A DNA stretch of 63,548 bases, the filler included, from Perkinsus olseni (taxonomy: Eukaryota): the NCBI GenBank assembly GCA_013115125.1. It is 3 parts of 3 records of this genome, joined end to end, with 100 filler letters (N's around TTAATTAATTAA, not from the genome) between each part and the next. Parts side by side here need not be neighbours in the genome. Positions count along the whole stretch, not along the records: positions 21,275 to 42,363 come from JABANN010000560.1; 2 more parts are not named here. The stretch is one strand, 5' to 3'. The position numbers and the translations under genes were made by a program. The notes under the pieces are model-generated. The model was given only the letters and a program-made list of their open reading frames with translations. It was not told where the DNA came from and ran no database searches. Below are positions 37 through 40,694 of the stretch, piece after piece; the stretch's first letter is position 1, and each line of letters begins with the position of its first letter.

Positions 37-3000
37 TTAACGTGCATTAGTCCGTTTGAAGACGCTACTCTTCAACGATCCACTCCCAGGACTTCGGACC
101 ATATCCCGGGTCCACATGTCGCTCGGGAATGTCCTGAACGCAGGTTGCTTCCCAGTCGCTCTTGCTCCGTCGCGCTTTCCCGAGGTGGCGGTGTGCGGAG
201 CCTTCTTTTCGCCGATCAGGGCCGCCTTCTTAAAGTATTCCGCCATCTTCACCATGCAGCCTCTCTCTCTGGCCCAGTCAACCCAGCGAGCCCAGTCGCC
301 CACAGGATTCGCCGCCAACGTTTTGACGTCCCCAAAAACAACCAACCCTCGTTTGGCTCTCGTCAGCATCACGTTCATTCTCCTAGGGTCCGCCGTGAAA
401 CCTATCTCGCCTTCACGGTTCGACCGAACTGCGCTGAACAGAATGAGTTCTTTCTCGCTGCCTTGGAATGCATCCACTGTATTGATACTCAGTTTGCTGA
501 TACTTTCACGAGACAAACGGTAGTCCGACTCTAACGCCTTTTCGATCTGCGACTTCTGACCATTATACGGCACAACGATCCCGATCGCCTCCGGGTCCAG
601 CCCGGCCTCGACAGCCAACACCATCGCGTCGATCACGGCCTTGGCCTCGGCCCGGTTAGAGAAAGTCGTGCCCACTCTTGTCTCCCCACCGGTCACCGAA
701 TTAGTGTCCACAAGACACACTTGCACGCCTGATGCAGGCCAATACAATCCTGGTATCACCGGCCGCTGCCCGACGGCATCGCTGATTCTCCCTTCATAAA
801 AATTGATATTGGAAAACTCAGCGATGCTAGGGTGCATTCTCCGCTGCACGTCCAACATGTGCAGCCGACCGCCGGACTCGAGAACCCGCTCAAACAGACT
901 CGTACCGAAGCCCCGCTCTAGAGCGGCCGCCGAGCACACCGTAGCCGACAGCTGCTTGTGATCGCCTGAGAGAAAGGAAGGTCAATGGCTCGAGGAAATA
1001 GTCTGCGGAACTCGGCGAGGTTCCGAACTTTCTTCACGAAGTCTGGACAGATTGCATTTGAGCGATAAACATGGTCTCTCAACGGTCCCGAGTTGCCCAA
1101 GTGTACGAGCGGAAAAGTAGAACATCCACTGTTGAAGGGAAAGTGGTCACCGCCAGTACTGAAGTCTGCAGACGGAAAACTGACCACTCGTGGCATATAG
1201 ATTGCTGGCTCTTTCGCTAAAGCCCTGTAGATTATGATATCGCCGATGAGCAGCAGAGCTCACCCAATAGAACACAGCGTTTGGCCCCACGCGCCAATGG
1301 AACCAAAGTTGCGGGCTCAGTCGCTTGAGTGCATTCATCAATGACGACCGAGTCGAACGTGAGCCCATCGAGCATCGGGTGGCCGCTTCCGATACAGGTT
1401 GCGACCAGCACGGGGAACCTGATAGGCCGAATCCATGCCTCCTTCAGCGACCGCACTGATACCGACCTAACCCGTAGCGAAGGTGGACCGGTGACGCGAG
1501 ATGGGAATGCAATCAGGAGTTTTTCGACCGCAACAACTATAACAAGTCCTATGGTGGCTGGCACCAGGCGCGCCTTCCATTGACACCCAAAAAGCAATTC
1601 GAAAGCCACTCGTTCCAATTTCGAGACAGCGTAGTGCTGGCTGTTAGTTATAGAGGCTCTCTACTGATTTCAAAAAGAGCTTTACTAACCTGTTGACTGC
1701 GATCTTGTCCATCTGTGTCCGGAGTGCCGGTAGACGGCGGAGCTGACCTAGCTCTACCGCTTTCTTATACTCCTTCACCAGTGGGTGTCCTGAGAAGCAG
1801 AAGGGAGTCATTTGGCTTCATTCCTGCATGTGGCATCTTTCCATAACAGACCACACAGTCGGGTGGGAGACTGTCCATAGACGACTGCGGTGGTGGAATT
1901 GTGGCCCATAGACACAATGCCCTCAGGAACTTTGGCGCCACCAGAAACTCGTCTTCTGACGGCCTTTCTTCAAACCGTACTCTACGTTGTCCATTCGGCT
2001 TCCCATATGTCGCTCGGAATTACAGGGCATTCAATTACGTATCACAACCGAACGTGTACAGAGAAAACCATGTCCAACTGCTGTTGACCGTTTACCTCTG
2101 AGATAATGCTCCACTGTCTCCGACAGGTCAGGAGCTTGCGAGTCGACCATCCGCCCTACTCTGTAGCACTCGACGCCGTTCTTCTCGAGATGGCCGCGGA
2201 TGTTATCAGCCGCGGCGTTCGAGTCTGCTACGACGAGAACGCGACCTGAGCAGAGTGGCTCGGTACGACTCTACTGCGGCAGGGGTAGGCTTCAGAAGAG
2301 TACCAGTCAGTCAACTTACCCTCATTCTTCTGTAGGAGACCCTTCTGCCTCAATGGGCGGATCTTGTTCCGGACCCAGTGTTTTACAATTGCTACAGCAG
2401 TGTAAGTCTTGCCGGTTCCAGGAGGGCCTTGAATAAGCGTCAACGGAACGTTCCACGATCCATTTATCTGCCAATACCAGTGGCGCGCGCCCGTCCGATT
2501 GATAGTATTATATAAACTATATCCTTACCACGTTTCTCTGGTTGTCAGACAAGGGCATCCCCAGGTCCGGCAGATCCTCCGTGGGGGGCTCGAACGGAGG
2601 GGCAGATCGTAGGAGAGCGTCGCGCATTGACTCGTCGAAACGAAACCTGATAAATATGGCGATGGGAAGGTCTGCTAAACCGACTTCCGTCCACGAGGCG
2701 AGGGAGTTACCCACCTCTCCTTCTGCGAACCTCCCTTCAATTTGACGCCAGGCTTCAATGCGCAAAAGAGGCTGTTGTCACAGTGAGGCACTTCATACAG
2801 CACCCGAAGGGCCTCGCACATCCGGGAATGGCTGAAATGAAGCCGTACTCACGACTCTACTCGGGCCATCGTCTTACCTCACATTACTGTCGTCTAGCGG
2901 GAGGCAGCTCAGCTCAGTATTGGACAAGATGCTGAATTCTCGGGACTTCGACTCGAGCTCGGCTTCCTGGAATCACGACGAGACTCGTCGAGCGAGATAG

Positions 3001-29130: not shown

Positions 29131-29994
29131 CAGAGACTCTACCGAGCATCCGGCTACTTCATGCCGCAGCTGCTGCATCCGTTGCTGGGGATGGATCCTA
29201 TATGTACCATCATACTGTCGTTATGACAGTGCCTCCTGAGTCTCGGGAGCTCCGATGATGGTATGTACATGCTGTAGGCTCAATGCTTCTCGTATGAAAT
29301 GGCGTGTTGTGTCAACGCAGTTTGACAATTTCTGTACTATAAGCAAATCGTTGGTATGCGCCCCGCTCAAGTTCTCTTGCTCAGAGAGCGCGGATGTTTA
29401 TGGAAATGCCTACCACATATCTCAAGTCGCAATCACATTAAGTAGGATGTTTACTCACTCAATGTGTCCTCCCATCGCTTGTGTAGGCAGTGTTACTGCC
29501 GCAGTGATGTTTGACCAACAGCTTGAAGGGAAGATATCTAAACCAGTAGGACGACGGTGCAACGAATTATATCAGCGGACGAGGAACGCCATGACACATC
29601 CGCGATGCGCATTTAGCCTGTGCGAGATCCCATTACCGACCAACATAACCGAAGCGAGAATCTGCTTCGGGCCCTATTCTGTGTTGTGCAGTTGACATAG
29701 CCATGCAGACCATTCCAGCTTCACATTTTATACCTCCTTCTTCGAGCTGTTAGCCTTCCCCAGCAGCGCCGTGCAACGGATTGTTGCGTGTTCCTTCGGG
29801 CGACTTGCTTCTTTGTTCGCCTATTGTTAGGCTAACAATGTTAGCATTCGAGCTCTGAAGAGATTTTGTAGCCTACGAAATCGTACGCGCTAGATTGGTA
29901 GGAAGATCTCCGTTGTGAGGTGCCAATTCCCTGCGCAAGTAGGCAGAATGTAACTCTAATCCTAGCTTCGGTTTTCTCTCTCTGGCGCTGTGTC

Positions 29995-30062
29995 TAGCAG
30001 CTCTTTGCTTCGATCAAGTGACCTTCAGGATATGATCCCAACACGCTCTCCACTGCGCCAAG
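29995..30062 (-). pseudogene. Degenerate initiator tRNA-Met copy
   Basis: Aligns by eye to the intact copy at 31125-31197, with several substitutions and a lost 5' acceptor strand. Confidence 0.7.
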
Positions 30063-30219
30063 AGAGAACGGGTCGCAGTTTGCAGGCCAAGGTCGCAATT
30101 CGCAGGACGCTCTCTGAGGTAGTTGGCAATTGCCTCCGCGAGCAAGTGATTCTCTTTCGTTGGAGGAGCTCGAAATCATCAGAGTGGGCGTCGCGTCCGT
30201 TTTCCACTTGCTGAGACGA

Positions 30220-30258
30220 ATCAGTTTGGCTGAGTGGTCTAAGGCGCCAGAGCTGACA
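30220..30258 (+). pseudogene. Internally deleted tRNA-Leu copy
   Basis: ATCAGTTTGGCTGAGTGGTCTAAGGCGCCAG-AGCTGACA is the 5' and 3' ends of the 30991 gene with the middle removed. Confidence 0.7.
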
Positions 30259-30308
30259 AGTAATAGCCTCTATATATTTCTGTTCTCTTTTTCCGGCGAA
30301 AAAATGAG

Positions 30309-30395
30309 TAGCAGCTCCTTGTTTCGATCAAGGGACCTTTGGGCTTTGAGCCCAACAAGCTGTCCACTGCGCCAACTTGGCGCCGCCAAGCTGCT
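30309..30395 (-). pseudogene. Degenerate initiator tRNA-Met copy
   Basis: Anticodon loop mutated (CTCAAAG) and a short duplication/insertion in the D-arm region. Confidence 0.75.
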
Positions 30396-30472
30396 TTGAT
30401 GGGATAATATGCTTTTGGCACCCGTGAGGAGGTTGCTACTAATAGTTCGAGTGTATGTACGACTGTCGCCTA

Positions 30473-30544
30473 TGCACCGTCCGAGAATTGAACCCTGACT
30501 ATCCGCTTGGAAGGCAGATATCCTAAACATTAGACCAACGGTGC
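30473..30544 (-). tRNA. tRNA-Gly(TCC), full length with T-stem mismatches (possibly non-functional)
   Basis: GCACCGTTGGTCTAATGTTTAGGATATCTGC-CTTCCAA-GCGGATAGTCAGGGTTCAATTCTCGGACGGTGCA. Confidence 0.75.
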
Positions 30545-30622
30545 TCAATTGTATGAGAGTAGATTAGAAGTCTCGCGACTCACTGAGTCACTCACACACC
30601 TTCAGAGAATCATGAGAAATTT

Positions 30623-30695
30623 AGTGGAACCGAGAGCCGAACTTGGGAGCTACTGTGTGTTAGGCATTCGTCATAACCAACTAGACCATTCCAAC
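30623..30695 (-). pseudogene. Degenerate tRNA-Val(AAC)
   Basis: GTTGGAATGGTCTAGTTGGTTATGACGAATGC-CTAACAC-ACAGT...CCAAGTTCGGCTCTCGGTTCCAC; A box intact, stems broken. Confidence 0.65.
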
Positions 30696-30990
30696 TCCAG
30701 CAGGTGAATCATCTCTAACCTGAAACCGCGCTGCTAGTGTTCTTTCGCACGCAATGTGTTCTAGCTTAGCGCCGGATGTGTCACCCCAAGGCACGCCTGA
30801 TTTTTTCCGATCGTTACGGTCTACGCTTCGAAGAGAAAATTTAGGAGGACCTCAATTCGCAAGACGCTCTCTGATTAAGTTGGCAATTGCCTCCGCGAGC
30901 AAATGATTCTCTTTCGTTGGAGGAGCTCGAGATCTTCAGGGCCGGCGTCGGGTCCGTTTTACACTTGCCGAGACGGGTGACCTGTCACGG

Positions 30991-31072
30991 GTCAGTTCGG
31001 CCGAGTGGTCTAAGGCGCCAGACTCAAGTTCTGGTGGAGAAATCCTGGTGGGTTCGAATCCCACAGCTGATA
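30991..31072 (+). tRNA. tRNA-Leu(CAA)
   Basis: GTCAGTTCGGCCGAGTGGTCTAAGGCGCCAGA-CTCAAGT-TCTGG, long variable arm, GTGGGTTCGAATCCCACAGCTGATA. Confidence 0.85.
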
Positions 31073-31124
31073 AGTAATAGTCTGTAATTATATTTCTGTT
31101 CTCCTTTTCTGGCCAAAGAATGAC

Positions 31125-31197
31125 TAGCAGCTCCTTGTTTCGATCAAGGGACCTTTGGGTTATGAGCCCAACACGCTATCCACTGCGCCAAGCTGCT
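31125..31197 (-). tRNA. Initiator tRNA-Met(CAT)
   Basis: AGCAGCTTGGCGCAGTGGATAGCGTGTTGGG-CTCATAA-CCCAAAGGTCCCTTGATCGAAACAAGGAGCTGCTA. Shows A1:U72, GGG/CCC anticodon stem and the ATCGAAA T-loop of eukaryotic initiator tRNA. Confidence 0.93.
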
Positions 31198-31274
31198 TTG
31201 ACGGGATAATATGTTTTTGGCACCCGTAAGGAGGTTTCTGCTGATAGTTCGAGCTCATGTGCGGCTTACGCGTA

Positions 31275-31340
31275 TGCACCGTCCGGGAATTGAACCCGGA
31301 ACATCTGCTTGGAAGGCCGATATCCTAACCATACGACCAA
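31275..31340 (-). pseudogene. tRNA-Gly(TCC) interrupted after nucleotide 6; its first six bases GCACCG lie at 34138-34143
   Basis: The uninterrupted paralog reads gaccaa|cggtgctcaattgtatgag (30533-30557). Here gaccaa ends at 31340 and cggtgctcaattgtatgag resumes at 34138. Confidence 0.9.
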
Positions 31341-34137
31341 TTCTAGGGGAAAAAACCGAGAAAAGGGGAGGGGAAAAAGAGGGAAAGGGAGGGAAAGGGA
31401 GGGAAAAGAAGGAAAAGAAGGAAAAGAAAGAGGGAAAAGGGGAAGGAAGAGAGAAAGAAGAGAGAAAGAAGAGAAAAAGAAGAGAAAAAGAAGAGCAAAG
31501 GAAGAAAAAATGAAGCCAAAAAGGAGAGTATATACGTTTCATTGTATTTTTATTTTTTTCTCTCCGATATCATGTGCCGATGCGTTCTCGAGTGTAGCCA
31601 GCCGGTGAAGAGTGTAACAAGTTATTCTCTGTTAATCACCCCCAGAGCCTCAACTGACAACGCAAGCGAATAACAACGAGAATAAAGGAGATTGTAGACA
31701 GATCATTTGTCTTCAAGTGCATTATCTTGCAGATGAACTACTACTGCGGACCTGAAACAAACCTCGGAGTTCGCCAGGAATCGCTCATCATTACCCCCAG
31801 TCGCCTTCTCATCATTGTAACGTCGGCGCTTGTTGCTGTTGCGACGTTCCTTCTTCTCAGCGCGGCGCTTCTTCAGAACCCTTAAGGTCTCCAACTCATC
31901 AGGCGGCACATTCTCGGCTAGGGGACAGAACCGCACATGCTTCCCTTGTTCATCGGCGAATTGTTCGTGCTTCGGGATCGAGCTTCCATCTAACCCCGTG
32001 ATGACAGCTGTTAGGCGGATACCGCACATGCCACAGCTCCTCCCAACGCCGGACACGGCAACTGTCACACTCTTCGCTCGCTCCCTGGCTCTGGTTCTCA
32101 TCGCTTTCGATTCAGCATCCATACCAGGCCTAGTATCAAGGGGACATCGGCCAAACTTACTGCCGTCGGGCACGTGGCTGTTATATCCATCGACCAGAGG
32201 CTTACTGAAGAAACGGCATATCTTCTTAAGCGGGTCAGGCCGTGGTGTACCGCTTTTTGCTGTCGAGGGCCCTGGGGGAGATCAATGCCGATAGAACTGA
32301 AGCGCGAACTTACTCTCTATGGCTGGGGGCTCGGCAACATCAACACACTCGTTGGACGAATGAGCCGCAGTTCCCCGTGACTGGGACGATGCGATCTCTG
32401 TGGTGGCTTCGTGAGGAGTATGTGCAGTCACTGCACTGCACTGCACTGCAGTGCCTTGGAGAGCCGACCGCTTGACAATGTCGTCAATAACATCAGAACT
32501 AGTGACGGGTGTGGGATCAGTATCGAGAGGAACCGGTGATATCAACCTCTGAGTACCTTGAAGAAATAATGCCACATCGTAACAGGGAGAGTGTCTCTCC
32601 GAGGGACGAGGCTTACCTGGCCGAGGTTCCGGAAAGACGAGTTTCACGGCAGGGCGGAGATCCAACTCCAACCGCGCAGCGGCCTCTTGACCCCTCACTG
32701 TGGCGGGAATGGCAGAGCTGCGAATGTGGTTCAATCGCTTGAGGTATGTCTTCACGTCGTCAAGAGAGATGGAGTGTAGGGAAAGGGGCGCCTTGACTGC
32801 ACAGTCCCTCATTGCAGAGTCGACCTCGTCAAGTACTCTCTTCACATAGAGTCGATAGATGGTCTCGGAGTTTTGATCCGGAACTTGACTTATCAGCTCT
32901 CTCAATACGCTCGTCACATAAGGAGACCAATTTTCGAGTTTAATGATGCAGTTCGTAGCGTGCAGTCCTCGCAGCCGACAGAATTTTCTCCTCGCCTTTC
33001 CCCCCGACCTGATCTCCTCAAAAGCTCCATTTCTTGGCACATCCTCAGCCGATTCCACGTCGAACTCGACGCCCTCTTCTCCGTCACCCGAGGCGTGTTG
33101 GAGGATCTCCCTCTCGAGCTCGGCATCTCCGGTATCTTCCTCTGCATCTAGGTTCAAGCATCCCTCTGCAGCTAGTTTCTCCTCCTCCCACTCCCGGCAG
33201 ATGGCGCTATACCTCTCTTCGTCGATAAGGCGAAGATACTCGTGACCGAAGACGATCTCAGGAGGCTCAGAGCTCACCAGGATCGAGTTTCCTCCCAGAT
33301 TTGCGAGTTGATACTCGCGGCAGCTCAGCGGAATCGGTATGGTCTCCTTCCCGTCTATCTCCCCGCCCAACTTCATTTTCAGCCTCCTATTCGAAAATAT
33401 CATACGCCATAATAGCTTGCAGTCGTACAACTCGCCCGACACTCTCGATGTCTGAGAGAAATCCTTTTTTATGCAGGCATGCCGACATTCGCTTCGGGAG
33501 CTGCCTCGTATGTGACGCAATCCCCCTTGCCCGTCTCTGATGAATGTGACACTGTCCTCGCTATCAGAGACGCAATTACCGTCCACATGAACAAGGACGC
33601 TTCGAAAAGCGGACCAGAATCCTTCCTTCAATAATGGAGCCCCCACGCTGCCAGGGAGTGGTTCACCAGTGGAGTCGTTACGCTGAGATGGGTGGGTGCT
33701 CGCCTCTCCTTCACAGTCTAATTCCCAAAAAGTCCGTACGCATGCCTCTAGCCGGCGCCTCAGCTCGACGGGAGGTGGTATCATGCGCCTCACGTGCCGG
33801 CGGACTTCCTCGCGGGATGCGGGCTTATCCACCAGACCGGCTTTGGCCCGCTCAGCACGGAAAACCGCAACGTCCATATTGTTGTCGACGAAGAAACACC
33901 TTGAGAGGGCCGACGCAAAGCGGGTTTGGCGACTATGATTGTCTGTTGTGTTTCGCAACAGACGAAATATGATATGTAGTGCATCGACTTTGAGCTGAAT
34001 GGAGTTGGGCTCTCTCTCGAGGGCCGCAGCTATCATGGCCCTGTTGTTTGCCCCCGCAGTGCCGCAGCAGTCTCGATCGACATAGATTGTGGGCATATCA
34101 GTGTCTATATTACACTATTACCGATATATTACATTAT
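31341..34137 (-). mobile_element. 5'-truncated Dada-type DNA transposon inserted in tRNA-Gly
   Basis: 2.8-kb insert exactly splitting the tRNA next to its A box; encodes transposase-like ORFs. Confidence 0.8.
31703..34096 (-). CDS. Dada-type DDE transposase, C-terminal part (604-aa ORF 32282-34096 plus a zinc-finger tail in another frame, 31703-~32280)
   Basis: Motifs IYVDRDCC, LKVDALH (DxxH), HVRRMIPPP, RGSSRSECRH (catalytic E region) and C-terminal CGMCG..H..FCP finger resemble Dada transposases as I recall them. The N-terminal catalytic Asp region appears absent. Confidence 0.75.
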
Positions 34138-34164
34138 CGGTGCTCAATTGTATGAGGGTAGATT

Positions 34165-34328
34165 TGCACTGTCTACATAACACAATGGAGCTGTGCTCAT
34201 ACTAGCCTCGCATTATCACTCCATTCTCTCAACTACTCCACCTTTCTATCTGCTCTATCTCGTTCACTATGAGCCCAATCTACTTATGTTGTGTTCTACA
34301 ACTACACCTACTGCAACGAGATAGTGCA
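34165..34328. mobile_element. 164-bp TG...CA insertion (solo LTR or MITE) with GATT target-site duplication
   Basis: Ends TGCACTGTCT / AGATAGTGCA form a 9-of-10 inverted repeat. GATT at 34161-34164 and 34329-34332; the paralogous empty site gtaGATTagaag is at ~30559-30570. Confidence 0.8.
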
Positions 34329-34391
34329 GATTAGAAGTCTCGCGACTCACTGTGAGTCACTCACACACCTTCAGAGAATCATGAGAAATTT

Positions 34392-34464
34392 AGTGGAACC
34401 GAGAGCCGAACTTGGGAGCTACTGTGTGTTAGGCATTCGTCATAACCAACTAGACCATTCCAAC
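34392..34464 (-). pseudogene. Degenerate tRNA-Val(AAC), second copy
   Basis: Identical by eye to 30623-30695. Confidence 0.65.
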
Positions 34465-35249
34465 TCCAGCAGGTGAATCATCTCTAACCTGAAACCGCGC
34501 TGCTAATGTTCTTTCGCATGCAATGTGTTCTAGCTTAGCGCCGGATGTGTCACCCCAAGGCACGCCTGATTTTTTCCGATCGTTACGGTCTACGCTTCGA
34601 AGAGAAAATTTAGGAGGACCTCAATTCGCAAGACGCTGTCTGATAAAACCGAGCTGCTCCCTTCAAGCCAAATAGCGAAACCACAAAATATCTTACATGA
34701 GGACAAAAAAGACATCGTCTTCACCTTAGACATTTGCAGAGAGAAATAGATATCTGGAGGAGACTTTCCTCCGCCGGAGGTATTGGGCTAGCTTGCGTTG
34801 CTAGGTTAAGCCTTACCACACCTAGCAACTCAGCGGCTGGGACGGCGCTACCGCTCAGCACGACTTCGCGCGCAAAGCGTCGCCATCACCTGTCACCACC
34901 GGGAGGGAGGGCGAGGTGAATAAAAAAATAAAATAAACAACGACCGTTGTAAGAGCTACAACTGCATCAGAGTTGAGCTACAATGTTCTCTAGCCTTTTT
35001 ATGTCGCTGAACGTGTCACCTTTGTGCCACGGGCCTCAGGAACGCTCTCGATTTTACGTATGTTAACAAGTTAACTGCGATTATTGTAAGAATTTGTACT
35101 TAAATTAGGGGCGCGCGCACCCGAAGCACAAACGAATTCCTATAAGGTGCGGATGGTTAAGTCCCACTGCTGAGCGGGCAACCCAGCTTCGATTCCTGGG
35201 GTCGTTACCGCCGGAGAACTACAACGGAGATCGGTGGCGATGCCGCCGG

Positions 35250-35966: not shown

Positions 35967-38900
35967 ATGGCATCTCCTGCGAGTCGCGTTCATGAGGCGG
36001 AGCCCGGTCAAACTCTCACATCTGGCTCCGATGCGGGGACCCTTCCGCCTCTGTGCGACATCTTCATTGTCGAGGAGGGCGCCGCTGACCAAGCCCAGGT
36101 TCTGGACGCCCTCTCAACGACCCCCGACCCTGAGGTCGGAGCTGACATCCTCTTCAGGACCTCAAGTTGAGGTGCATAGAGAAAGCCGTTGTCGGAGGAG
36201 GTCCTCCACGGCGGAGACTCCTCGAGCGACTTGCCCGCCACTTGCTCGTCTCTCCTGTCGAGGCGGTCCCCGAAGCGGTGAGGTTGTACCTTGTAGACCT
36301 TTCCCCTGAAGAGCTGCCCCACTATGTGGGGGAGCATCTCAGCTCAGCGTGCAATCGGGCCGCGGTCGGCCTATTGCCGAGCGACACTTGTGTGGCCAGC
36401 CTGCGTTATTAGTGGCCTCACCATGAGCGGGGCGCGAGCTATAAGCCTGATCGATATGAACAGTAGTTGCGTCACGCTCGTTTTTGCTCATTGAATTTTA
36501 CCACTTACCTACCGTGGTCATGTTGAGTTCCCCCAGTGGGCAGGCAACCGTACACACTTCTCGAAAACTCCGCCACCTGCTTCTCCCTATAGTGGTTTGT
36601 GCTGCTCTCCAGAACGAAAGGCTCGCTCGTTTCCCTGAAGCTCAGACCCTCACCCACGTGTACCGTCGCAAGGACCTTTCCTCGCCTCTGGAGCTAAAGA
36701 GCTCTGAAGCAAGCCCTTTCAGCGAGGGTTGGACCGCTCGCCTTCTCCAGCGGAGACGCGAGGAGGCCAGCCAGAGCGCCGGCGGCCCGGCCAGTCCTCA
36801 GCCGGCGGTTCCTGCTCAGCACCTTCGCGGCTTCAATCACCAATCTGCCTCCTCGCCCCCGCGTAGGTCGGTTTCTCGAGAGCGTGGCGAGTTCGCCTCC
36901 GGGCGCTCAACGGTGCCTTCGGGCCCAGCTCTCCCGTCTCACGGATCCCGGGTTACCCTGAGGCCAAACCCTGACGCCATTTCTAACGGGGACCGCAGAG
37001 CGGCCTCTCGAGACGCTGATAAGGCATCCTCAGCCTTCAAGGGCGGTCCCTTCAAAGGCGTGGATGACGAGCGCGGACTCTCGGGTTATGGCGTCAAGTA
37101 GAGTCGTTGGTGGTCCGGCGTGGCTGGGAACTCGGCGGTCCTGAGCATTACTTCCTTCTCACTAACCTCGTCCCGGAGTACACCCTCGAGGAAGCCGTGG
37201 GACGCAAGAATCCCGTGACTCTCGCTGATTTTTCCACCTCCGTTGCTGAGATCCGCTCCGCTCTAGCGGACGAGTGCGGGGGCCATTTCGAGGTCGAGAA
37301 GCTCTCGGCAGAACCCACCGGCCGCTCAAACCAAGAGTCCCTGACGAGCTTCATCGGGCGACTGGATGAGTGGGCCAGACGCTGTGCCCTGGCAGGGGCT
37401 CCTCTCGGTGATGGCCATGTCATTAAGGCGTTCCGTGAGGGCGTCAACGACGAGAGCTGCAAGGAGGCTTCCTATGAGTACCCTGGCCGGTGGCCGCAAT
37501 TTCGGTCTAAAGCACTCACGCGCGCGGCTCGCGCGGATGCTGACCGGTTGGCCAAGTCTGGTGGTCGGTCCTCTACCCCATCGTCCTCCGGCAGGGGGGC
37601 ACCGCATTCAAGTCGTTCAACGCCGTCGTCTAAGGTAGAACTGTGCCGTAACTCTCTCCGCGGGCGATGTCAGCGAGGAGACACGTGCATCTATCGGCAC
37701 CTTGGGCCCAACGACTGCCGGCAGTGGGGCCCACTGCCGGCCCACTGAGTGGGCTGCCGAGGGTAAGTGCCGTTTCGTCAAAGACTGTAAGTATCGGCAC
37801 GGTAGCGCGGACGAGAAGAACGCGCATGGTGGAGGACCACCATCTCGTCAGCCGACATCATCGAACAGGGACCTGAAGGCCATTTCCGCGTCTGATGCGA
37901 GCGGACACCCGGCGAGGCCGCCGGCGATAGCCATCCCGATTCTCCGGAGGAGGACCTCCAGATACTGTGGGCCGTCCAAGAGACCGCGGACGGAGCGCCT
38001 GCGAAGCAGGCGGGTCCCACGCTCATCCTGTATCCTTCTGGGGGGCAGTCCCCTTTCACGGCTCTTCTGGATTCTGGTGCTGTTCGAAACTACGTCAGTC
38101 ATGAAATGGCTGTCGCAAGGGGTTGGAAGATCAGCGCATGCTCGACCTCTGCCAATCTCGCTAACGGCGCGGTCGTCAAGCTTCGCGGCACCACTGAGGT
38201 TGCGGTGAGCCGTGACGGTCGAAATCATGAGCTGACATTTTTTGTTCTCCCTGGAAGCGGCGCTTCCAGAGGCGTAGACGGGTCCACGTGCATCCTCGGC
38301 GTCCAATCCATGTGCGCACTTAAAATCTCCCTGTGCTTCTATGAGGTCTCGGGTTCACGCCAGCCTGGCGATGACCTGGCGTCGCCAGGCCATCTGCAGT
38401 ACGTGGCGCTTGCAGAGGAGGACCTTCCTATCACCGTTGTTGAAGAACGTGAAAACGTTGTGTTCCGCTGCGACAAAGGCATCGATCAGCTCCCGGCTGT
38501 GGGTGGACCCGCTCAGGAGGGTGCGCGCGTCGGACGCGCGGGGAGGCTGGATGTGCAGTGGCGTCAGGCTAAGGGCCTTAACTTAAGGCTGCTCCGGATT
38601 ACTCCATCCGCTTGAGACCTCTCGCCGGAGGCGAGACAAAGGATTGCCCTACTCAAAGTCATACAGTCGAGGTTCGGTGGTCGTCGTCGCCGCTGGCGCG
38701 GCAAGGGCCTGTACACGACTATTCTCGATCCCTCTTCGCCGCGCTATCCTCCTTCCAACAACAGTCGTACCTTGAGGAGCTCGACCGCTTCCAGGAGCGC
38801 GGTTGGTGGGAGCCTCTGCCCTCGGAGGGCACTGAGGACCACTCTTGCCTTCCTGAGGCGATCGCCTTTCCGGTGGTGCAGGGAGAGAAGGTACGACCCT

Positions 38901-39075
38901 GTGTCGACCTTAGGCGCGGGAACGCTACATCACCGCCGAGCTCATACCCTGAGGACTCCTGTGCCACGGTTCTCGCGCAGGTGCGCGTTGCTATCGCGGG
39001 TATTTCGCGCCGTGCGCGCGGTGAAGGACAAGCTTCGTCTCGTCGGTTGGCCTTTTATACACTTGATGCGGCCAC
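35967..39075 (+). mobile_element. Decayed LTR retrotransposon gag-protease-RT (3'-truncated, with frameshifts and stops)
   Basis: Gag-like QESLTSFIGRLDEWARRC..VIKAFREGV; two CCCH fingers; aspartic protease ALLDSGAVRNYVS..CILG (~38055-38330); RT start ELDRFQERGWW..FPVVQGEKVRPCVDLRRGN..FYTLDAAT. Confidence 0.85.
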
Positions 39076-39099
39076 GGTGCGCCGTACGCCCCGAGGTCA

Positions 39100-40694
39100 C
39101 TTCAAGTAGTCACTGGGAAAACTCGATGAGAATCTTTATCAACTCGGCAGTACTATCAAAACGGAGACAGTAAATGCGAGACACAGACGCAAATGACAGC
39201 TGATCCATCCACTGGTAGAGTTTAAGAGATATGTCAGCAGCAATCAAAGCAGTCTCTACATTCGACGTAATAATACTACTTGAGCATCCAGTATCGACTT
39301 CAACAACGAAATCAGACAACTGAGGCACCCTAAGTGTACTATTCTCAGACACATGATCACTACAGAAGTTCGCAGTAGAATTAACCTGTTTGGAGTCGAT
39401 CTTGCCGTTAGTCGTCGTAGGTAACAGGGTCGAACCAGTAGTAGAAGCAGAAGCAGTAGTAGTATCAATAGCAGCGTCACCCACAGATCTTTTCTTAGAA
39501 CCCATTTCACCACGCACATCCTCATTGAGGATTCCTCAATGGGAGCGTGAGTACAACGACACATTGGGGAACGAGTAGGTTTAATACTCTTCATATAATC
39601 ATACCAAGCAAATATATCAGCTGAAGTCTTCTTCTTATCAGTAAACATCTCTTCGCACTTGTCAGCGAATTCGTCATCAGTAACATATCGTAGAAGGTGA
39701 ACTTCCTCGTTCTCTACACGGTGTAGACTACACCAAAAGCTTGAGCAATCTGCAAACCGATAGAATTCATCGAGGAGTCGGGCGACGGGTTCTCCACCAT
39801 GTTAACCATCGGGAAACTCAAGTCAATGGTTTAGTGGAATCCTGAGATTCTGCCAATAATAACACTGATAAAGTCATCAACTAGCGTCAGGCTAGGCTTA
39901 GGAGCCATAGTTGTGCACTTGCACAACTACACTTGTGGACTGGAATCTTTGGATATCTGGCTCCCCTGTGGAAGAGTTGTAAAGAGTGAACCGGATGTCG
40001 ACAGCAGATTGGAGTCCGGCTGGAGAATTCTCGCTTTTACTAAGCAAGGCGTCAGGGCGAGAACGACCAAGATGGCGAGTAGAGCAGTTGAGGAAGAGTA
40101 CATTGATAGGTTACAAAGTTGTCGCTAACATGGTGGAAGCTATTATAAAATCTCGCCGATCACGAGGGCCTCGAATCAGTTTCAGCTAGTGGCAGAGTCG
40201 AGAATGGTTGTCCCCGGTTTCAGATTTGGCATTGGTGGTCTACGCTGATCGTTGTGTTCTATGCTTGATCATAAGAGAGCTGCTCATAAGGAGAGTCGTT
40301 ATTGTTCTAAGCCGACTAGCAGTTTACTATGTTCATAATGTTCGAGCTTGAGTTCGTCGTTTACTGCCGCTGTGCGCTATTGTGCCGTCCTCGCGTGAAG
40401 ACTATTCCACCTTCACTCCTGGCAGGGAGGAGCTAGCAAGCTTCTCTGTTCACTCGAGCTTGAGTCTGTTACGGGATTCTGCACACATCCATGTGCTTGC
40501 GTGCAGCCTAGGATCCATAGCTAATTGTTGTGGTTGTTGGTCGCCCTGCGTGCGCTGCCCTAACTCTACTCTACAGTCACTCCCTTAAGTCTCCGTAGCT
40601 CAGCTACTTCTACAAGTTCACTAGTTATTGCGTTACCGAGTTCCAGTCGATACGACCACACCCTCTACAGTTACATTCACTCGAACCCGTTACA
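39100..40694 (-). mobile_element. Second LTR retrotransposon relic: putative 5' LTR (39800-40694), PBS, internally deleted gag/protease
   Basis: Minus strand TGTAACGGG...GGTTAACA is followed directly by TGGTGGAGAACCCG; protease motif VEVDTGCSSSII in the 39110-39517 ORF. Confidence 0.7.
39786..39799 (-). promoter_or_regulatory. Primer-binding site complementary to a tRNA-Ala-type 3' end (..CTCCACCA)
   Basis: Plus strand cgggttctccacca abuts tgttaac, the putative LTR terminus. Confidence 0.65.

Follow-up and report, generated by a model that had tools for sequence, protein, structure and literature searches.

Among the retroelements that lie upstream of tRNA genes, DGLT-A of Dictyostelium discoideum is given tRNA distances of 13 to 33 bp for 18 of the 20 copies tabulated in PMC5006619 (Table 1), and Ty3 is described as requiring A and B boxes that are intact (PMC5911963). 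In Perkinsus, Dada families use the inside of tRNA genes, tRNA-Gly included, as insertion sites, and the account in PMC3706591 names Dada-tG from P. marinus among them. TRIMs are characterized in PMC6934838 and PMC10886601 by terminal repeats of 100 to 250 bp, a primer site, a purine tract, no coding capacity, and a total length below 1,000 bp. Here, we set beside these systems a 164-bp insert in a tRNA cluster of Perkinsus olseni, located in a window of 63,548 nucleotides (the whole stretch of DNA analysed, filler between its parts included). The original prediction saw in it a solo LTR or a MITE of a Pol III-targeting element and considered the array a landing site for two tRNA-targeting strategies. 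We think it very likely that a TRIM-like family, mobilized in trans by a helper of the Gypsy order, gave rise to this recent solo LTR, which landed by chance and without guidance by Pol III factors.

As read from the window sequence, the insert (34165-34328, plus strand) runs from TGCAC to GTGCA over 164 bp and is bordered by two copies of GATT, at 34161-34164 on the left and 34329-34332 on the right, to which no strand is assigned. The expected TG..CA element with its target-site duplication is therefore borne out, and the 10-bp terminal inverted repeat is present as well, albeit with one mismatch (9 of 10 positions paired). The surrounding unit is duplicated, 30561-30878 and 34328-34647 being 98.1% identical and 3.6 to 3.8 kb apart. 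The empty paralogue (30473-30565, minus strand) consists of an unsplit tRNA-Gly(TCC) at 30473-30544 and a single GATT at 30562-30565, in agreement with the claim that the element is absent from the paralogous unit; a third paralogue, on contig C1438 (L080), is also empty and has GATT once. Contigs of two of four public runs (X2 and X5), at about single-copy depth, skip exactly 168 nt at the insert, equal to the 164-bp element plus one GATT, and most simply represent the empty paralogue. Since GATT is single in two paralogues and the skip measures 168 nt, we are dealing with an insertion and not with a deletion from the paralogues, so that this part of the original prediction holds too.

The predicted distance of 21 nt upstream of tRNA-Gly is correct when counted from the first base of the gene, at 34143, with 4 of the 21 nt belonging to the duplication. 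The tRNA at this place, however, is only a 6-nt 5' stump of a split tRNA-Gly(TCC) (34138-34143, minus strand) that no A box or B box adjoins. Neither ARAGORN nor Rfam makes a call at the stump, because just 6 nt of the tRNA-Gly are there. The 3' part, 66 nt at 31275-31340 on the minus strand, is matched by Rfam at 31282-31340 and differs from the common gene at 4 of 66 bases; a 2.8-kb insertion separates the two pieces. Of the 72 bases of the unsplit tRNA-Gly in the empty paralogue, 5 depart from the common gene, one of them in the D-loop GG, and a decayed tRNA-Val(AAC) copy (34391-34464, minus strand), the 3' end of which lies 62 nt from the LTR, differs at 8 of 74. The tRNA cluster around the insert is thus decaying throughout. 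At 29959-31340, Leu-Met-Gly tRNA units are duplicated in tandem and alternate in orientation, and several of the copies have decayed.

The sequence between the tRNA-Gly pieces is mostly a DNA transposon remnant (31341-34113, ends approximate, minus strand) with a 610-aa stop-to-stop frame at 32282-34114. Its host, its target, and a DxxH motif recognized by eye lead us to take it as a putative Dada-type element. Pfam had no match in this transposase frame, which shares 97% identity with a protein annotated as Perkinsus olseni. The frame matches residues 443-614 of a longer Perkinsus olseni protein, P0003, that extends about 440 residues further at the N terminus, and a contig of run X7 departs from the window sequence at 34113; from these two observations we conclude that the window copy has lost its 5' part. 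At the deletion junction, a 24-nt filler (34114-34137, minus strand) composed of short stretches copied from both flanks, in direct and inverted orientation, resembles a product of templated end joining. Contigs starting in the remnant reach 29 to 30 nt into the LTR in X2, X5, and X10, the bridging rule being 31 nt; no such contig is among the X7 records listed, and its absence from that run is thereby unproven. In X10, a record of 111 nt identical to the LTR (34165-34275) has a depth of 584.7, compared with 5.4 at the Dada junction, and the tRNA-Val copy, which is very deep in X2, X5, and X7, has no cover. If X10 is an RNA library, this would be a weak hint that the young LTR is transcribed. 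Elsewhere in the assembly, Dada-like transposase frames on G000:C2617 (L093, L108) and C882 (L118) have a pyrimidine-rich terminal tract leading into tRNA-Gly or tRNA-Phe, the latter being absent from the Perkinsus Dada targets listed in PMC3706591. The window also carries, at 36460-39100 on the plus strand, a decayed retroelement resembling gag, protease, and RT, with an aspartyl protease match at 37896-38612.

The nature of the insert is revealed by a paired element on contig C7. At C7:669-1729, two identical LTRs of 164 bp enclose 733 bp (1,061 bp in total), with GATG at both sides, and the window LTR is 100% identical to both of them and to a solo copy on C1604. The first LTR on C7 is followed by ACG and then by 15 nt, all 15 of which are complementary to the 3' end of the window tRNA-Met(CAT), so that the primer site begins 3 nt past the LTR and is without TGG; a polypurine tract precedes the second LTR. 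The orientation given above for the window copy derives from these two signals. Junctions of a polypurine tract with the LTR occur at four places (C7, C1059, C1204, and C2772; control, 0), and junctions of the LTR with a primer site on C7 and C289 and, decayed, on C2772. Hence, the pairing on C7, the primer site, the polypurine tract, the duplications, and the noncoding interior together identify the insert as the solo LTR of a small nonautonomous LTR element. The pair of copies to be looked for exists, but the gag-pol to be sought between them was not found on C7: the C7 element has no frame of at least 200 aa and no match from six pol proteins of the genome. A few bases past the primer site, 7 to 8 nt are complementary to the 5' end of tRNA-iMet (L031:1535-1562 on C7; L048:229-256 on C289) and may form a two-part primer site with the main one.

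Copies of this LTR are dispersed. A genome search with the LTR gave 41 matches from the 40 candidates scored out of 109, and a search for the end patterns gave 61 left and 54 right ends (controls, 1 and 0). A perfect 4-bp duplication borders 15 of the 31 elements having both ends and one with a single mismatch another 10, compared with 0.69 for shuffled flanks; no duplication of 3, 5, or 7 bp and one of 6 bp was found in the same 31. The copy at G000:C2742:20571-20734 (L012) has a perfect 6-bp duplication in place of the 4-bp one. In the left flanks (n = 61), position 1 is C or G in 48 cases, position 2 is A in 24, position 3 is T in 29, and position 4 is G or C in 41; the family thus loosely favours targets of the form S-A-T-G, and GATT matches three of the four commonest choices. 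This bias is a modest sequence preference of the integrase, for which a host factor is not needed. Six insertions are young, with 99 to 100% identity (C2858, C1604, C7, C2821, C78, and C2292). The young allele at LTR position 43 amounts to about 10 single-copy depths in X2 and X5 (a rough figure, as depth is not copy number) and to 11 matches in the fetched loci; given this agreement, a large hidden pool of young copies is not apparent. We regard these sequences as a dispersed Perkinsus LTR-retroelement family that is seen whole solely as short, noncoding, TRIM-like forms, in a genome rich in LTR elements (99 integrase matches). In the literature searched on Perkinsus retrotransposons and alveolate TRIMs, a description of the family was not found; it is apparently unnamed, and Repbase may already catalogue it.

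Whether a family of this kind targets tRNA genes should be evident from its other copies. The BLAST survey of LTR copies and their tRNA distances proposed with the original prediction was run on 80 non-redundant loci, 79 of which have a BLAST match to the LTR (78 excluding the window). Dropped before the count were L004, a duplicate of L003, and L159, an end-pattern match without a BLAST match; the end-pattern match C3297:57231 lies outside the set. Flanks extended about 600 to 1,500 nt, with five loci having less than 400 nt on one side. Within the flanks fetched, Rfam at the gathering score found no tRNA at any of the 78 other loci, nor did ARAGORN (-ps95), short-word BLAST, or a profile made from 42 tRNA genes of the same genome find a credible one; as a positive control, the profile recovered the window tRNA-Val copy with an E value of 4.9e-10. 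Adjoining tRNA is therefore found at 0 of 78 other LTR loci (upper 95% bound, 3.8%), and tRNA-like sequence solely at the window locus among the 79. Nor was a Dada transposase, which could hide a split tRNA, found at the 78. Among the six young, near-identical insertions, the only one by a tRNA is that of the window. The reverse survey, of tRNA and Dada loci (L078-L120, 43 in all; 67 tRNA calls, often redundant), revealed no copy of the LTR except the one in the window. Some further calls were set aside: ARAGORN at -ps80 made 120 calls in 65 of 80 loci, which we discarded as noise; at -ps90, calls at L015, L043, and L075 went beyond the control, each at least 600 nt from the LTR and without Rfam support; and partial profile matches with E values of 0.02 to 0.075 (L020, L025, and L141) all lay more than 33 nt from an LTR end. 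Because the assembly is fragmented, copies inside collapsed tRNA arrays could have been missed.

These data bear unequally on the possible explanations. An element of the Ty3 or DGLT-A type, with TFIIIB or TFIIIC directing it to Pol III start sites, would account for the 21 nt from the first base of the tRNA, within the 13 to 33 bp listed for DGLT-A (PMC5006619), and would be in keeping with the 4-bp duplication and with the Gypsy-order relatives present in the genome. Yet none of the 78 other loci lies by a tRNA, in contrast to the 18 of 20 copies tabulated for Dd_DGLT-A; the young insertions and the reverse survey point the same way, and the A and B boxes that Ty3 needs, by the account in PMC5911963, lie 2.8 kb off, no intact ones now being near the insert site. 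Pol III targeting as a rule of the family is refuted by the flank survey, which also disposes of the notion of an array exposed to two tRNA-targeting strategies, and guidance of this one insertion by Pol III factors seems to us extremely improbable. Equally hard to credit is a MITE, that is, a nonautonomous DNA transposon with the 10-bp inverted repeats as its ends. The inverted repeat, the shortness, and the many copies would suit it, but short inverted ends are usual for LTRs, and a single strand of the insert is not predicted to fold end to end. On C7, two direct copies bound one element with a primer site, a purine tract, and a common duplication, and the primer-site and purine-tract junctions recur on further contigs. 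The C7 structure refutes the MITE reading, since the insert is one of two direct repeats in a larger element; of the two identities originally offered, the solo LTR stands.

A less extreme possibility is that the element inserts mostly at random but leans weakly to Pol III-transcribed or open chromatin, and that it arrived before the Dada transposon split the gene. Under an assumed 300 to 3,000 tRNA genes (63 of 3,889 tRNA candidates were scored), one match among 79 loci in a 21-bp window would occur by chance with a probability of only about 1 to 12%, and either the LTR or the Dada transposon may have arrived first. The chance figure overstates the surprise, however, since this single event was selected after the fact for its adjoining tRNA. 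In addition, the LTR is identical to the C7 pair at 164 of 164 positions amid tRNA pieces that have all decayed, which suggests that it was inserted late, and the counts of the young allele leave little room for a large unseen set of recent copies. A weak leaning of this kind thus appears unlikely, if somewhat less so than directed targeting, and the place next to a tRNA looks like chance.

For the favoured reading, a chance landing of a TRIM-like solo LTR, we envisage the following history. A family copy would have been transcribed from an LTR, with reverse transcription and integration provided in trans by a Gypsy-order helper. Integration would have produced the 4-bp GATT duplication, and recombination between the LTRs would then have removed the interior, leaving the solo LTR. 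Pol III factors would not have guided the insertion; landing in a decaying, duplicated tRNA cluster would have been fortuitous, helped at most by the local sequence preference.

An autonomous or coding copy with the same LTR was not found in the interiors on C7, C1059, and C2772 or by pol searches. The C7 interior matched just 140 nt, on C289, and that on C1059 only noncoding pieces on other contigs. C2772 proved to be two separate decayed LTRs without pol and not a paired coding copy, and a gag frame near C1059 was rejected as a gene of the family, being on the opposite strand. A search by the pattern of the LTR-primer junction turned up several elements with gag. Among these, G000:C3231:911-6056 (L210) is a complete, apparently young Gypsy-order element with 155-bp LTRs that are 99.4% alike, start with TGCAC, and are bordered by a 4-bp duplication. 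It has a single frame of 1,589 aa and a purine tract similar to that of the C7 family, and no tRNA was found in the 9 kb fetched. RT precedes integrase in this frame, and the Ty3/Gypsy pol order (integrase after RT and RNase H) is seen only in this look-alike. Its LTR is no closer to the window LTR than shuffled sequences are (47 of 200 score as high). C3231 therefore illustrates the kind of helper and is not itself the helper.

The primer sites form a second point of similarity. TGG is given as the usual primer-site signature (PMC5006619), whereas sites for tRNA-iMet without it occur in G000 at C7:1548-1569, C289:7121-7142, C594:365-383, C746:332-353, C2623:35272-35293, C103:2429-2447, C3194:4414-4435, and C3231:1062-1083, a form common to the C7 family and to the gag-bearing elements on C594, C746, C2623/C103, C3194, and C3231. 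In each, two variable bases come after the LTR end, then a G, then the tRNA-iMet complement from the discriminator base onward, the triplet after the LTR being ACG, TAG, GCG, GAG, or TCG. A pattern permitting TGG gave nine matches, none with TGG; the match on C1991 is not followed by gag and may be fortuitous. At 30 loci with the same iMet complement, we counted 17 with TGG, 2 with a one-base variant, 8 tRNA genes, and 3 without TGG. Pairing with C74 of the CCA end is possible for the retained G. The two variable bases before it cannot pair with C75 and match the usual 2-nt spacer. A primer ending at C74 would be the simplest mechanistic reading of these sites. Judged from sequence, a Perkinsus Gypsy-order clade that includes the LTR family may thus prime with tRNA-iMet lacking its last two bases, a proposal we make only tentatively; the primer may instead be of full length and mispaired, or a different RNA. 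In the literature searched, a description of such TGG-less sites was not found, and PMC10886601 cites 3'-truncated primers in plants for some Copia lineages only.

In itself, a small LTR family in an LTR-rich genome matters little, although its young copies may be usable as strain markers. Its analysis does remove a false lead, in that the array shows no second tRNA-targeting strategy. The one lead that reaches further is the lack of TGG in the primer site, a trait found in intact relatives as well. Should a trimmed tRNA prove to be the primer, a Gypsy-order lineage would be priming with a tRNA devoid of its CA, an unusual route.

Among known systems, the family resembles the Perkinsus Ty3/Gypsy (Metaviridae-type) element on C3231, with which it shares the TGCAC start, the LTR size (155 versus 164 bp), the 4-bp duplication, the form of the primer site, and the purine tract. 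LTR similarity is confined to the ends, however, and C3231 encodes RT and integrase, whereas the C7-type copies encode nothing that we found. TRIMs, as described in the sources cited at the outset, are resembled in the direct terminal repeats of 164 bp, the primer site, the polypurine tract, the lack of a coding frame, and the many solo repeats, as well as in the lack of any partner found to share the LTR. In contrast, the sole intact copy, on C7, measures 1,061 bp, just above the 1,000-bp limit, for which reason we file the family as TRIM-like and not as TRIM. The primer site without TGG also sets the family apart, as does the alveolate host, the non-plant TRIMs listed in PMC10886601 coming from insects, cestodes, and bivalves, plus fungi and other animals. 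Dada-tG of Perkinsus marinus (PMC3706591) shares the insertion in tRNA-Gly and accounts for the neighbour of the insert; it is a DNA transposon unrelated to the LTR, and the window holds a Dada copy devoid of its 5' part. With yeast Ty3 and Dictyostelium DGLT-A, finally, the window copy has in common its distance upstream of the first base of a tRNA (PMC5006619, PMC6101501, and PMC5911963). In these accounts, Ty3 and DGLT-A regularly occupy sites upstream of tRNA genes, whereas for the Perkinsus LTR family this holds at 1 of 79 loci, where all that adjoins the LTR is a 6-nt stump.
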